A stretch of 64,000 nt of DNA from a virus. Location: positions 45,250 through 109,249 of IMG/VR virus record IMGVR_UViG_3300030109_006161; one strand, written 5' to 3'. Made by a program: the position numbers and the translations under genes. The notes below the pieces were generated by a model. It was not told the DNA's origin. It was given only the letters and a program-made list of their open reading frames with translations, and made no database searches. Of this stretch, positions 12,927 to 62,627 are shown in pieces. The number at the start of each line of letters is the position of its first letter. Position 1 is the first letter of the stretch.

Positions 12927-13586
12927 TTAGTTGTTGACGAGTTCATCAATCTTGTTATATAGTTCGGGACTAATTTTCTTTAGTTTTTGCTTGCTTCCTA
13001 AAAAATACTCTTCGAATCCAGTTCCAAAATATTCACGGAGAGAAACAGATGCATAAGGTCTTATATACATACCAGATGTAATCATTTTAAGCAAGTTTCC
13101 TCCAACCCTTTTGTATAAAAAGACATCAAAATTACGGTCATACTCAAGATTCATGAAATTATATTCTTTAGTCCAGTATCCTTCAGATCTTAATTCAAAT
13201 TCTAGCTCCGCTCGTTTTTTGAGGAACTCCTTTTTGATTTTCTCATCTGCGTATATCTCTTCAGGGTACAGCATTTCTACATGATGTGCGAACTCATGAA
13301 TTATATCATCGATAATATCAGCGGCATTATCTTGTTTGTTGGTAATATAAAAGATACCATTATCGTATAATGCATTAGCATCTTTCTTATCAAATATAGG
13401 AATATGTTCTATTCGAATTTGATTTAGAGATCTAAAGAACTTTGATGGTAATAATTTTTCTACAGAAGATAAAACACTTTGGAGATCTATATTATCCGGA
13501 CAGGGGTCAACCTCAACAACATCTACCCCAGCAAAATTAAAATACTTGGGCGTATTGTTTACTCTTTCAAATATATAATCTCTCAT
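12927..13586 (-). CDS. Zincin metallopeptidase-like protein
   Basis: IIHEFAHHVE (HExxH) plus downstream SLREYF. Confidence 0.6.
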   Translation of the reverse strand: MRDYIFERVNNTPKYFNFAGVDVVEVDPCPDNIDLQSVLSSVEKLLPSKFFRSLNQIRIEHIPIFDKKDANALYDNGIFYITNKQDNAADIIDDIIHEFAHHVEMLYPEEIYADEKIKKEFLKKRAELEFELRSEGYWTKEYNFMNLEYDRNFDVFLYKRVGGNLLKMITSGMYIRPYASVSLREYFGTGFEEYFLGSKQKLKKISPELYNKIDELVNN

Positions 13587-14887
13587 AGAATTTCCGAAGC
13601 TAAGGTTGCTAATTTAGATCTTTCGCCTTTAACTAGTGTCACATGACCCGCAATATCATATTGTTTGAATTTTTCAACAGCATGAGTAAGACCGTTTGAA
13701 ACTGAATCAACATAAGAGTTATCAATTTGTTGGATATCTCCAGTAAGCACTAATTTAGTTCCATGACCTACCCTTGTTATTATAGTCTTTAATTCGTGGG
13801 CTGTTAAGTTCTGAGCTTCGTCTACAATCAAGAAAGCATTGGAAATTGAGCGACCTCTAATGTATGTCATAGCTTCTATTTCAATGGTTCCTTGTTCTAT
13901 TTGCATATCTAAAGCACCACGGTCGCCAAACAGTTGTTCTAAGTTGTCTCTAATAGGGGCAATCCACGGCATCATTTTTTCTTCTAAAGTTCCCGGCAAA
14001 AATCCGATATCTCTACCCATGGGTTGAACTGGACGAGTTATAATCAATTTATCATATCCACCTTTTGCACTAGTGGTATTCATAACTTGCTCCAAGGCGC
14101 AAGCTGTGGCTAATAATGTTTTACCAGTTCCTGCTGGTCCTGTCAAGGAAAGAACATGTATATCTTTATCGAATAAGAGATCCATTGCATATTGCTGTTC
14201 TTTGTTGTTCGCTGATAAACCCCATATGTTTTTGTATTTGTTTATCTTTCGAAGAGGTTTATCATAGTCCATAAAACGACAGATTGCTGACTTACTTGTA
14301 CCTTCATTTTTTAATATAAGGTATTGGTTTGGGTAAAGTTTTGTTCCTTGTTGTGGTAATAATGTTTCTTTACCGGTATAAAATTGATCTATAAGGCTAA
14401 ACTCTACCTCTACTTCTTGAGTTCCGTCAAATAAATTCTCTATAGAGTTAATTACTTTCTCAGGTTGGTAGTCGTAACATTCTATACCGTGGGCGTCGCA
14501 CTTTACTCTCATATTGAGATCACGAGACACAACAATAACTTCTTTGCCTTCATCAATTAATCGGAGAGCAACAGCTATAATTTTATTATCAGCATCATTG
14601 TTATCTACCCCAGGAGGCATGTATTTTTCATCAAAATGTGCCGCTATTACTCTGCCTTTGCCTCTTCCTAAAGGAGCACCGGTAAGTAAACTACCTTTAG
14701 AACGAAGTGAGTCTAAAACTCTATTCATAGTTCTAGCGTTTAAGCCAGCAGTATCCTGCCTGTGTTTATGACGATCAATCTCATCTAAAACTATAGTTGG
14801 TATTGCGATATCGTTTTTACCAAAAGCTAATATGGAACCTGCCTCCGTGAGGTATACATTCGTATCTAAAATGATGGTTTTTTTCAT
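13583..14887 (-). CDS. phoH: PIN domain + PhoH ATPase (PhoH2-type)
   Basis: ILDTNV PIN motif; GPAGTGKT, GFLPG, YIRGRS, DEAQN, GDIQQID. Confidence 0.92.
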   Translation of the reverse strand: MKKTIILDTNVYLTEAGSILAFGKNDIAIPTIVLDEIDRHKHRQDTAGLNARTMNRVLDSLRSKGSLLTGAPLGRGKGRVIAAHFDEKYMPPGVDNNDADNKIIAVALRLIDEGKEVIVVSRDLNMRVKCDAHGIECYDYQPEKVINSIENLFDGTQEVEVEFSLIDQFYTGKETLLPQQGTKLYPNQYLILKNEGTSKSAICRFMDYDKPLRKINKYKNIWGLSANNKEQQYAMDLLFDKDIHVLSLTGPAGTGKTLLATACALEQVMNTTSAKGGYDKLIITRPVQPMGRDIGFLPGTLEEKMMPWIAPIRDNLEQLFGDRGALDMQIEQGTIEIEAMTYIRGRSISNAFLIVDEAQNLTAHELKTIITRVGHGTKLVLTGDIQQIDNSYVDSVSNGLTHAVEKFKQYDIAGHVTLVKGERSKLATLASEIL

Positions 14888-43218: not shown

Positions 43219-43489
43219 TATACTCTTTTCCTTTCGAAACGTAAAATCTCAGAAAATTAGCTACGTGTTGTGAATGCCCTTAGCACACCCCCCAGGGGGA
43301 GTCAACCCCTAGGGACTAACATTAGGGGCAGAGAGGGCTGGCAAGGCTGGCACACTACAGCAAGCAGTTGCAGTTATGCAAACAAAGCTGGTTATAGCTG
43401 TTACTATACTCTATTATATCTTCATTACTTTTATTTTGTTCCCTCAAAATTTCACATAAAATTCTCTAACTATCGAACATTCTCGGTGA

Positions 43490-44659
43490 TTAGCTGATAG
43501 CAATCACACGCTCATTGGTTTGGAAGTAGGGGCGGCTGGCACCCCGCTCATCAGTCAGCCACATACGCTGGGCTTTGCAGTTCTTAGGCTTAGGTGCTTC
43601 CATATCCGTCAAGATAATAACACCGTCAAAATCTCCACGCTTGTTGACATACTCGGTAGGAGCATCAAAGCAGGTACCGCCGCACATCACTCGCTCGGCT
43701 GAATGACTCTTGCCTTGCTTCCATTCGTAGACAAGCTTATTATCTACCTGGGTATCAAAGGGGATGACCGTGAAGCTGGCAAGCTTAGCAAGCTTATTCA
43801 GTTCGCCGAAGAAGTTCTCAAGCATCTCAGTACTGACACTACCGGACTGGTCGATGGCAATAGCGATCTTAGCTTGGCGCTTTACCTTCTTACCTGGGTG
43901 GATGTAAGCATAGCGCTTGTTGATCCTGCGGACAGTGCTGGATTTGTTAGCACGCTGTGAGGTCTTGATGAAGTACCTTAGTACCTTCTTCCAGTCTACC
44001 TTAGTTTCTAATCGCTTTATGATTTCTTTTTTTAGATCCCCTGAAACTGAACCCCAACCGTTGGGAGACTTGCTGGCTTCCTTAGCAGCTTCCTTCATCC
44101 CCTGTTTGAGTCGCTCCTTAGCCATCTGGTTGGCAGCAGCGGCAGCCTCATCACCTTCTTCATCCCAGCCTGAATGGTCATCAAGCTGTCCCGTGCCTGG
44201 CTCTCCTTCACCCTCACCACCACACTGATCGACCTGATCGTCCGTGATGTTCTTCAAGTACCACTCGGCACTCTTGAGCTTAGGCAGATCCTCAAAGGGA
44301 CCAACACCTGGCATACATGCTAGCTCTGGCAGTTCGCCAACTAAGTGGCTGTTGATAGCCAGGTCAGCAGCAATGTTCCACGTCTTGTGTGGTACACCTT
44401 CAGGCTTACGGCTGGTAACATGCTCGAAGATCAGGTGGTAGAACTCATGCTTGAGTACACCCTTGATGTGATCCTCTGGCAAGCTGGCAAAGAACTCAGG
44501 GTTGTAGATCATTTCGAACTGAGCGGTATCAGGGCATACCCGAACACCAGCAGTTGCGATGCTGCGATCCTCACGCTTTTCTAACTTACGGCTGAGAGCA
44601 GCAAAGAACGGCTCGTCCATCAGCAGTCTGTAAGCATGTAGTTTTAGATCAAAACTCAT
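43490..44659 (-). CDS. DUF2201-type metallopeptidase + VWA protein (MoxR partner)
   Basis: EPFF, TAGV, HEFYH, NIAADLAIN; IDQSGS, GGT.F, LTD. Confidence 0.88.
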   Translation of the reverse strand: MSFDLKLHAYRLLMDEPFFAALSRKLEKREDRSIATAGVRVCPDTAQFEMIYNPEFFASLPEDHIKGVLKHEFYHLIFEHVTSRKPEGVPHKTWNIAADLAINSHLVGELPELACMPGVGPFEDLPKLKSAEWYLKNITDDQVDQCGGEGEGEPGTGQLDDHSGWDEEGDEAAAAANQMAKERLKQGMKEAAKEASKSPNGWGSVSGDLKKEIIKRLETKVDWKKVLRYFIKTSQRANKSSTVRRINKRYAYIHPGKKVKRQAKIAIAIDQSGSVSTEMLENFFGELNKLAKLASFTVIPFDTQVDNKLVYEWKQGKSHSAERVMCGGTCFDAPTEYVNKRGDFDGVIILTDMEAPKPKNCKAQRMWLTDERGASRPYFQTNERVIAIS

Positions 44660-44681
44660 TACTTCTCTCCCTTACATATGT

Positions 44682-44709
44682 ATACTACCACGGTATAGTA
44701 TTCTGTCAA
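44682..44709 (-). promoter_or_regulatory. Early-type promoter
   Basis: TTGACA-16-TAGTAT plus GTAAGGGAGA leader. Confidence 0.82.
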
Positions 44710-44727
44710 CTTTTTATTTATCCCCAC

Positions 44728-44756
44728 AAAAACAAAAGCCCAGCCGAAGCTGAGCC
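44728..44756 (-). terminator. Intrinsic terminator after moxR
   Basis: GCTCAGC-TTCG-GCTGGGC-TTTTGTTTTT. Confidence 0.8.
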
Positions 44757-44790
44757 CTTGCCGATCTCAAAGGAACCGGTGTAAGAGAGA

Positions 44791-45834
44791 TTAGGCTCCC
44801 AAGATCTTACTCAAGTGGCTGCCGACAATGCCATCATTAGCAGAGTGGAATTTGATGACGTTTTCTTGTACGCCGCCAGTTGAGAGTACCGACCAAAGCT
44901 TCATAGCAGCTTCGGAGGGCAGGCTAACGAAGTAGCTAGCAAGGTTATTGATGTGATCGTCGCTGATCTCTGCTTTGCAGACGTCTTCTGCTTCGAGCTT
45001 CTCGATCATGGCACAGTGCTCGTTGAGCGACATGGCAGCCAGAGCGTCAACACGCTCGCCATTGAGAAGCTGATCGACCGTGACAACTCGCTCGTAGTTC
45101 TTAGCGAAGTCGTTGAGAGCGACAGCAGCTTCGAAGCCGACGAAGGACTGAGCCAGGGAGAACATCATGGGGCTAGCTTCTTCCAAGTAGCCAGCACCGT
45201 CAAGCACATCGTTCAGCCGCTTCCAGCTACGACGGCTGGGATAGCGCTTGTTAGGCTCGATGTCACCGTTGTGCTCTAAGTGGCTGCGGTTCTGGTTGAT
45301 GAAGTCCCACACAAGGCTATCAACATTATCTTTACCCCAGGCTAACCAATCTTCAACCGTGGGTTCGATGTCCCAAACACTCCAGCGATCCAGTTCAGCA
45401 GGATCCATTTCATTGACTTGGTATTGTTCCCCATGCTCTCCGCCGTTGATGGCAGCGAACACTACGGTATCTTCATGGAGATGATGACCATTGAGCTTAC
45501 GGCTGTCCGTGAGTTCGAAAATGCCTTGTCGTACTTCTAGCGTAGCACGATCAACCTCATCCAAGAAGAGTACCGAGGGCTCCTCACAAGCTTCCTTGAA
45601 CCAATCGGGAGGATTGAAGCTCGTGCGGTTGCCGTCAATGCTGGGAAGACCGACAAGATCGCCTTCCGTCATTTGGCTGGCACGCCGTTCGATAACGGGC
45701 AGTCCCATTGCAGCAGCAAGCTGATAAACAACTTGGCTCTTGCCAATACCGTGACGACCACGGAGAAGAACTGGAAGCTTGGCAGCGCTGACGGCTGGTG
45801 CAAGCTTGACAAAGGTTTTGAAGTCCACACTCAT
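44791..45834 (-). CDS. MoxR-like AAA+ ATPase
   Basis: GRHGIGKS, DLVGLP, LFLDEVDR, MDPAELDR, PSRRSW. Confidence 0.9.
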   Translation of the reverse strand: MSVDFKTFVKLAPAVSAAKLPVLLRGRHGIGKSQVVYQLAAAMGLPVIERRASQMTEGDLVGLPSIDGNRTSFNPPDWFKEACEEPSVLFLDEVDRATLEVRQGIFELTDSRKLNGHHLHEDTVVFAAINGGEHGEQYQVNEMDPAELDRWSVWDIEPTVEDWLAWGKDNVDSLVWDFINQNRSHLEHNGDIEPNKRYPSRRSWKRLNDVLDGAGYLEEASPMMFSLAQSFVGFEAAVALNDFAKNYERVVTVDQLLNGERVDALAAMSLNEHCAMIEKLEAEDVCKAEISDDHINNLASYFVSLPSEAAMKLWSVLSTGGVQENVIKFHSANDGIVGSHLSKILGA

Positions 45835-45858
45835 GTTATCTCTCTCCCTTACACTAGT

Positions 45859-45886
45859 ATATTACCACCGATACACTACCTGTCAA
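45859..45886 (-). promoter_or_regulatory. Early-type promoter
   Basis: TTGACA-16-TAATAT plus GTAAGGGAGA leader. Confidence 0.85.
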
Positions 45887-46193
45887 CTTTTAAATGCACT
45901 TTATTTAGTTTTATTTGCCCTATAAACTCTGCCTGCCTCATGATATAATGGTAGGATGCCTGCTTATATTAGTCCTTTACAATATGTATATTACTATGTA
46001 TTTGACACTCAGAGACAATCACTTCCAAATGCAGCCAAAGGCTGGCAATGCTGTAAAACGTTGTAATAACTCACATTCTCTTTTATTCTAACTATAATTT
46101 ACAGTCACTTCAATGGGTTGTGTGTACCGTGCAATAATTGCAGTGTATTATGCAGTTTATGCAGCAGCAATCTGCAACAGGCTGAAAAGGCTA

Positions 46194-46667
46194 TCAGAAC
46201 TTGATCTTCTTATCATCGGCAGACTCAATATAATCCTCAATAGAACCACTGAACTGGCTGGCACCCTCAAGCAGATCGTAGATAGATAAAGTGTCTTCTG
46301 TGCTCTCTGGGTCTACATGTATCTTACCTGAGAATATTCTTGATATTGTACTAGGGCTGATCTTCATATTGAAGAACCTTTTACTAAATGATTTAGCTAT
46401 TTCTCTTGTGCTAAACTTACCTTGTTGTTCTCTTATCCAGTCTACATGTAGTTTCGTTAGTTTGTGTGATTTTTGTCTTCTTTTTTTGGCTCGCCTTGCA
46501 TTTTGATCTCGTAGATTAGACAGAGTACAGGTTCGGCATCTCGGCTTGTAGCCATCCTTGGTGACACCAGCAGTGTGCTTATAATATTCCGAGACGGGTT
46601 GGACTCGCTCACACTTGGTACACTGTTTGACCCAATCGCCGTTCTCGTTGAAAAAAGCAGCAGGCAT
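46194..46667 (-). CDS. Zn-finger + HTH DNA-binding protein
   Basis: KQCTKC...RCRTC; STREIAK...ISPSTISRI. Confidence 0.65.
   Translation of the reverse strand: MPAAFFNENGDWVKQCTKCERVQPVSEYYKHTAGVTKDGYKPRCRTCTLSNLRDQNARRAKKRRQKSHKLTKLHVDWIREQQGKFSTREIAKSFSKRFFNMKISPSTISRIFSGKIHVDPESTEDTLSIYDLLEGASQFSGSIEDYIESADDKKIKF

Positions 46668-60849: not shown

Positions 60850-62627
<1,778 letters not shown>

Follow-up and report, generated by a model that had tools for sequence, protein, structure and literature searches.

Why should the nucleotides directly following the stop codon of a phage moxR-like gene be complementary to the leader with which the same gene begins? The question arises in the window (the whole stretch of DNA analyzed here, 64 kb in length), which is the right-hand part of a 109-kb viral record rated about half complete. 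The 16-mer UCUCUCUUACACCGGU (= TCTCTCTTACACCGGT) at 44790-44775 lies directly 3' of the TAA codon at 44793-44791, and its upstream partner ACTAGTGTAAGGGAGA (45858-45843) pairs with it at 15 of 16 positions, with two G:U pairs and one A x C mismatch. Sequence, coordinates and pairing are exactly as a first-pass annotation of this DNA had stated. The same annotation had described an 11-nt complementarity to the leaders of the downstream VWA gene and of other early genes, and the 11-nt core is indeed found in five leaders of the window, with each of which the 3' element can pair across that core. The terminator that it had placed after the element was also recovered, as a strong hairpin that begins 15 nt past the 16-mer.

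The genes sampled (PhoH, GroEL, tail fibre, glycosyltransferases, DNA methylase and five tRNAs) would fit a large uncultured marine phage. A nucleotide search of isolate phages gave no match, the closest MoxR proteins among isolate phages are at most 31% identical, and no cultured relative or host is known from these searches. MoxR-type ATPases combine an AAA_5/AAA_3-type domain with a VWA-domain neighbor, and both features are present: the product scores 47.9 bits with Pfam AAA_5 (cut-off 22), AAA_3 staying under its own cut-off, and the gene adjoins a DUF2201_N/DUF2201 gene (Table 1). The GC content of the moxR-VWA block (44001-46000) is about 50% vs. 34-45% in the remaining window. An Rfam search over 43400-46200 returned nothing meaningful, the top match being SorY with 22 bits against a threshold of 111.

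Both moxR and the VWA gene possess one promoter/leader cassette each. Five near-identical cassettes are found in the window, with a layout consisting of an AT-rich tract, TTGACA, 16 nt with TG, TAnTAT, about 6 nt, UGUAAGGGAGA and the start codon. The 11-nt leader core (TGTAAGGGAGA) is identical in all five, and its copies lie on the - strand, each downstream of a TTGAC-N16-17-TAnnAT promoter. The predicted moxR promoter showed 10/12 consensus matches plus an extended -10 in a consensus scan, and on the same consensus basis transcription is predicted to start near 45852. Folded alone, the moxR leader has no structure (0 kcal/mol), and the SD would for this reason be open unless paired. An apparent decayed cassette (TGTCAA ... 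TAGTAATAT ACATAT TGTAAAGGAC) lies at 45970-46010 (-), about 110 nt upstream of the moxR promoter, inside a non-coding gap of about 300 nt and with no gene behind it.

Table 1. Features of the moxR locus (positions in the window).
Feature	Positions	Strand	Details
moxR-like AAA+ ATPase gene, 347 aa	44791..45834	-	stop TAA 44793-44791; Pfam AAA_5 E = 1.8e-12
Partner gene, putative metallopeptidase with VWA-like domain, 389 aa	43490..44659	-	Pfam DUF2201_N E = 3.3e-23, DUF2201 E = 2e-10
moxR promoter, predicted	45859..45886	-	-35 TTGACA 45886-45881; 16-nt spacer with TG; -10 TAATAT 45864-45859
moxR 5' leader	45835..45853	-	UGUAAGGGAGA 45853-45843, putative partner of the 3' loop; SD core GGGAG 45848-45844
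Predicted hairpin, 5' arm GAUCUUGGGAGCC, last coding nucleotides	44794..44806	-	fold -15.5 kcal/mol
Predicted hairpin, 16-nt loop (stop codon and CU-rich anti-leader)	44778..44793	-	core UCUCUCUUACA 44790-44780
Predicted hairpin, 3' arm GGUUCCUUUGAGAUC, in the 3' UTR	44763..44777	-	folding and family comparison
Intrinsic terminator, predicted	44727..44762	-	12-14 bp stem, UUCG loop, U-tract; -17.7 kcal/mol, z = -4.5
Promoter and leader cassette of the downstream VWA gene	44660..44709	-	-35 44709-44704; -10 44687-44682; leader core 44676-44666

The complementarity observed in the DNA is probably longer than the duplex formed by the RNA. The five outermost positions of the upstream 16-mer (45858-45854) immediately follow the -10 hexamer (45864-45859) and, across the family, pair at or under chance; they are probably upstream of the transcription start and hence untranscribed. 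Because of both observations, the likely RNA duplex of the window genome is reduced to some 10-12 bp, about UGUAAGGGAGA with UCUCUCUUACA, so that around 10-12 positions of the 16-nt duplex first described are credible whereas the outermost five or so pairs are probably absent from the RNA. The moxR 3' element is the sole antisense match to the 11-nt leader core with at most one mismatch, although one such match is about the shuffle expectation for the window genome alone, and by duplex energy the moxR site ranks 4th on its own strand across the 109 kb. The match in the window genome alone is therefore near chance, whether judged by count or by energy. The three same-strand sites with an equal or better energy in the genome-wide scan were taken as chance; two of them are inside same-strand reading frames or antisense to a + strand gene and the third is outside the window. 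What goes beyond chance is the position of the element: the post-stop segment of moxR reaches -18.3 against the leader compared to -13.4 for the next-best ORF (mean -5.2, sd 3.1, 146 ORFs of at least 80 aa), and moxR is the only ORF of the 146 with this feature. Its 3' loop is likewise the only strong complement of the leader in an untranslated region. An antisense leader reading into moxR was also considered and rejected, the + strand having neither a promoter nor a start codon there.

Comparison with relatives gave a clearer picture. Scans of viral and metagenome collections led to 160 related loci, 97 of which encode a MoxR at least 75% identical, giving 74 distinct leader/tail pairs. A CU-rich tract follows the stop codon in all 74, although in one of them (L152) it is displaced: at L152:1274-1342 the gene end is apparently duplicated (GATCTTGGGAGCCTGA ... 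GATCTCGGGAGGCTG) and the anti-leader has been pushed about 24 nt from the stop. Among the 72 relatives with enough flank, the element follows the stop without a gap in 66 and after a single nucleotide in 4, and the distance from element to terminator is variable (25 to 139 nt). The predicted duplex with the gene's own leader has a mean energy of -19.3 kcal/mol, with 69/74 at -15 or lower, and holds at least three of the four SD core nucleotides in 67/74. A 3' UTR complement to the SD region of the same gene, the arrangement that defines the icaR type, is thus present in the window (11-bp core) as well as in the relatives, and conservation of the putative SD-masking core is firm in these alignments. 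In more distant moxR relatives (n = 56-57, <75% identity) an own-leader signal was absent from the 3' flank (-10.1 vs. -9.9, p = 0.34) and from the hairpin loops alike, and the predicted device is for this reason specific to the clade of MoxR proteins at least 75% identical. One of these distant loci, L040:2960-4110 (62% identity), has a leader CCCUUCCCCAAAGGA that pairs with UCCUUGGGGAAGGA directly past the stop at -23.7 kcal/mol, the best of 56 tails; this complementarity is unrelated to that of the clade and may be an independent case or chance.

The description of the element as sequence right after the stop is correct, but it missed the structure that would present it. Full-length folds lacking the 5'-3' helix led to a hairpin in which the last coding nucleotides are paired with a conserved 3' UTR segment. 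In the window, GAUCUUGGGAGCC and GGUUCCUUUGAGAUC form a 13 bp stem, the loop consists exactly of the stop codon and the anti-leader, and the terminator hairpin abuts the whole. According to folding and family comparison, the post-stop element is what a conserved stop-spanning hairpin exposes in its loop, a feature that is new here. Loops are 12-39 nt long in the family (median near 19 nt) and the arms are of two types: type I as in the window and type II, CCUGGGAG(CC) with (G)CUCYCAGG. RNAalifold on all 74 mixed sequences recovered a 5-bp core alone because the two types align in different registers, and the types were therefore analyzed separately. In the type I subset (32 sequences) 95.9% of cells are paired and five pairs are changed on both sides, a level that 0/500 shuffles reach, and sliding the register lowers pairing to 23-61%. 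Compensatory arm changes reach synonymous Leu codons (UUG, CUG, CUA) and are also found in variants with altered C-terminal amino acids (L007, L104, L109, L155, and L156). At L019:4021-4089 and L139:1518-1586 a U-run comes immediately after the GGGAGC ... GCUCCC stem that encloses the stop codon; in these two relatives the hairpin over the stop seems to serve as terminator as well, and its loop contains both the CU tract and a small internal hairpin. Neither a Rho-loading site nor a stop-context effect was accepted as the principal function of the tract, given its length of 9-21 nt, the varying stop codon (TAA, TAG or TGA) and the intrinsic terminator that follows.

Compensatory changes between leader and tail, which the first-pass annotation had named as a check, were found in the relatives. 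Five complementary classes were distinguished: leader TGTAAGG with tail CCTTACA, GTTGAGAG with CTCTCAAC, GTGAGAG with CTCTCAT (via G:U) or CTCTCAC, ATGAGAG with CTCTCAT, and TGGAGAG with CTCTCCA. In a gapless register anchored at the junction of purine run and pyrimidine run, 700/864 cells pair (81%) compared to 640.7 (74%) with shuffled partners, and 0/5000 shuffles match this value. The three outermost informative pairs each occur in two Watson-Crick types (TA/GC, GC/TA, and GC/AT), with 0-1/5000 shuffles reaching their pairing. Complementarity ends 4-6 nt past the -10 hexamer, and the outermost co-varying pairs, located in this same interval, precede the canonical start (the 7th nt). Recombinant genomes with mismatched classes retain the GA/CU core over the SD alone. 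Mismatches in a type-blind alignment are asymmetric, with 30 G/A (a G:U on the mRNA strand) vs. 3 A/G, and this tolerance of G:U on the mRNA strand only points to RNA and not to DNA. On the other hand, the gene tree implies about 23 reshufflings each of the leader and the tail classes, and recombination inside the gene could keep the flanks matched without selection. Phylogenetically independent contrasts went in the favorable direction (4:0 and about 3.4:0.3), but they are underpowered (p = 0.125-0.25) and confounded by recombination. The evidence for outer co-variation in these sequences is consequently good but not conclusive.

Since the leader core is common to several genes, the partner of the loop had to be distinguished among them. 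The loop pairs with the five leaders of the window at -15.4 to -18.5 kcal/mol, i.e., within about 3 kcal/mol, and GA-rich leaders and CU-rich loops are in general promiscuous, non-own partners still averaging -17.8 kcal/mol. Nevertheless, pairing with the own leader is stronger than that with the VWA leader downstream in 48/63 relatives (mean -19.7 vs. -17.9 kcal/mol). Early-type leaders were also collected from five relatives with long contigs (5-9 per genome) and from the window: the moxR leader is the best partner of the loop in four of the five relatives, the second in one, and the first of five in the window, so that the own leader comes first in 5/6 genomes when all early leaders are compared. 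In three genomes the variant that matches the loop is carried by the moxR leader only, and variants such as GTTGAGAG/CTCAAC match the moxR leader only. These rankings favor a pairing with the gene's own message over a regulon-wide sRNA or a VWA coupling, and the element could touch other leaders too via the shared core. In four of the long contigs (G002-G005, from L005, L006, L008, and L012) 5-9 early cassettes were found each, and the leader is not uniform within a genome, with the variants TGTAAGG, TGAGGGAG, TGGAGAG, ACAAGGAG, and TTGAAGGGAGG.

We lean, with moderate confidence, toward an end-to-end pairing of the moxR message that masks its own SD, is lifted by finishing ribosomes and limits MoxR synthesis. 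The message would extend from its own sigma-70-type promoter to the strong terminator, and its 3' end would fold as a hairpin in which the end of the coding sequence pairs with a stretch of the 3' UTR and whose loop would show the stop codon and the CU tract. This tract would pair with the initial 10-16 nt of that mRNA, SD included, joining its two ends and hiding the ribosome-binding site. A ribosome reading the last codons would have to melt the hairpin arm and, once at the stop codon, would occupy the SD-pairing portion of the loop; masking would be relieved while ribosomes finish and restored afterwards. The net effect would most likely be a gene-specific limit on MoxR synthesis, the gene having otherwise the same standard strong promoter/leader cassette as its VWA partner and other early genes. 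What the sequences show is the complementarity with its place, conservation and co-variation, as well as the hairpin; we infer the transcript ends, the pairing in cells, its repressive direction and the gating by ribosomes, the lifting step being derived from the known footprint and helicase action of the ribosome. That ribosomes lift the mask while terminating is suggested by the strict stop adjacency together with the coding 5' arm. A closed loop freed by terminating ribosomes had been among the first-pass proposals; its pairing with the own leader is favored by the leader comparisons and the outer co-variation, and its ribosome link, which is consistent with the stop adjacency and the hairpin, stays conjectural.

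Leader and loop are about 1.05 kb apart on the message, and the predicted folds are compatible with their pairing to a variable degree. The 5'-3' helix is in the minimum-energy structure of 8/13 whole-mRNA folds and reaches P >= 0.8 in 9/13. In the window, a nested fold with the hairpin and without the 5'-3' helix is favored by 1.9 kcal/mol, the helix having P ~0.5. The hairpin stem and the leader-loop helix cross each other in a pseudoknot topology with linkers of 3 nt and 1-2 nt; judging from these models, both are probably not fully formed at once, and partial or alternative states may be expected. A stricter version of the mechanism, in which the SD would be accessible solely during the time that a ribosome melts the hairpin and occupies its loop, each finishing ribosome licenses about one initiation and a message without a successor ribosome locks shut, seems to us rather doubtful. 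If true, such a termination-gated loop would set the protein yield per mRNA as a self-contained counter or timer, independently of promoter and leader strength.

Other explanations have to account for the same features. The last 65-85 nt or so of the message (loop hairpin, terminator, and U-tail) could be processed into a trans-acting sRNA that masks all early SDs and shuts off the early regulon. Like the 3' ends that give rise to CpxQ/SroC-type sRNAs, that of moxR has a seed followed by a Rho-independent terminator near the stop codon of an mRNA, here as two hairpins plus a U-tail (-35.7 kcal/mol, z = -4.6), and the loop is complementary to the 11-nt core common to the five leaders. Since the processing of known 3'-derived sRNAs, CpxQ among them, takes place close to the stop codon, stop adjacency is no argument against this reading. 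Nevertheless, CpxQ/SroC-type sRNAs are separate RNAs acting on other mRNAs, whereas the best target of the moxR loop is the parent leader; it follows this leader and not the commonest one of each genome, the matching variant being on moxR only in three of the genomes where it comes first. Moreover, the consensus scan revealed no promoter-like site within the moxR 3' end, and the hairpin takes its 5' arm from the coding region. The sRNA of the first-pass annotation thus retains its hairpins, U-tail and fit to five leaders and loses ground on promoter and target, and we consider it unlikely. The same annotation had proposed a translational coupling, according to which the element would pair, on read-through transcripts, with the VWA leader about 100 nt away, and ribosomes finishing moxR would unmask the VWA start and set the MoxR:VWA ratio. 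The VWA leader is much nearer than the moxR leader, it pairs with the loop at the mean of -17.9 kcal/mol given above, and a weak co-variation exists at one flank position (21/5000 shuffles). However, a strong terminator (-17.7 kcal/mol plus U-tract) and a full, separate promoter stand between the genes, so that most VWA transcripts would be without the element, and the VWA leader pairs less well than the own leader, which alone is matched by the CTCAAC-type variants. The case for coupling is consequently weak, and both the unmasking and the setting of the ratio appear very unlikely.

It is also conceivable that the hairpin with its CU loop binds a protein, directs RNase processing or stabilizes the 3' end, in which case its complementarity to the leader would be a by-product of GA/CU low complexity. 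The stem is itself conserved and GA/CU repeats pair with nearly any family member, but low complexity cannot give the class-specific outer pairs (TGTAA/TTACA, GTTGA/TCAAC, ATGA/TCAT, and TGGA/TCCA), nor does it agree with the first rank of the own leader among all early leaders in 5/6 genomes; we regard this explanation as quite improbable. Even less can be said for an inverted repeat acting at the DNA level, as a recombination site or mobile-cassette end without any RNA role, to which we attach hardly any probability. Inverted copies do bracket the gene, the reshuffling of leader and tail classes indicates that recombination is frequent here, and terminator/promoter cassettes of T4-type phages mediate shuffling (PMC2839356, PMC4122927). 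A DNA repeat would nevertheless leave unexplained the 30 to 3 strand asymmetry of the mismatches, the end of the complementarity near the expected transcription start and not into the promoter, the use as one arm of a leader common to other genes, and the location of the element in the loop of an RNA hairpin with a co-varying stem.

The end-to-end pairing proposed for moxR has partial precedents. In the icaR mRNA of Staphylococcus aureus, a pyrimidine-rich motif in the 3' UTR base-pairs with the message's own SD region and blocks the initiation complex (PMC3868564). Both messages have a 3' UTR complement of their own SD region, but the icaR motif is located 260 nt past the stop in a long 3' UTR, involves about 40 paired nt and is a substrate of RNase III, whereas the phage-borne moxR element begins directly at the stop, belongs to the loop of a partly coding hairpin, and is predicted to form 10-16 bp from about the 5' end. 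A duplex of 10-16 bp is probably too short on its own for cutting by RNase III. In Bacillus subtilis, pyrimidine-rich anti-SD sequences pair with an SD located hundreds of nt upstream and reduce the mRNA level, as was also seen at one 3' UTR site; those inside coding regions lower translation as well, and the effects fall with distance and depend on local structure (Gill et al. 2025, PMC12697547). These anti-SDs are engineered insertions of a kind that natural genes avoid, unlike that of moxR, which is conserved, presented by a hairpin loop and tied in position to the stop codon. The icaR and B. subtilis studies show that anti-SD motifs can block initiation or lower translation and mRNA level, and for this reason a gene-specific brake on MoxR is the direction of control that we favor. 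By analogy with the hbs mRNA of B. subtilis, in which a 14-bp 5'/3'-UTR interaction influences the cutting of the leader by RNase Y and has a protective effect on the message (PMC5737220), such a pairing can however protect rather than repress. The hbs case resembles moxR in the short long-range duplex joining both UTRs of a monocistronic mRNA and differs from it in that the SD is left uncovered by the hbs pairing.

Control of its own message is seldom attributed to a bacterial or phage 3' UTR, icaR and hbs being the main worked examples found in our literature searches. Here, an anti-SD sequence of a kind normally purged by bacterial genes has been retained in a natural and widespread lineage of ocean phages, at a fixed place, the predicted hairpin loop over the stop, where it changes along with the leader of its own gene. 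The locus therefore offers a compact phage example in which end-to-end mRNA pairing can be tested. A brake at the 3' end of a gene is a way of tuning that gene alone despite a shared promoter/leader cassette, and phages may possibly tune single genes with standard cassettes in this manner. If the ribosome gating is true, it would be a new link from termination to initiation. The element might also find use as a small, portable module with which expression levels are set.

The cassettes themselves recall the PeSL of T4-type phages, in which a composite terminator and early promoter are located between genes, repeated in variable regions and subject to frequent recombination (PMC2839356, PMC4122927). 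The predicted terminator at 44762-44727 followed by a promoter at 44709-44682 is PeSL-like, as is the presence of five cassettes in the window. PeSL have been described as recombination and regulatory cassettes without an anti-leader loop upstream of the terminator, and their host phages are T4-type myoviruses, whereas the window phage is known here by accessory genes only (PhoH, GroEL, and tail fibre). Two of these genes, at 60850-62436 and 13583-14887 (-), encode a full-length GroEL-type chaperonin and a PhoH-like protein, and the best GroEL matches in the phage collection are 40-44% identical, with two Salmonella records first, followed by Flavobacterium, Acinetobacter, and Vibrio phages.
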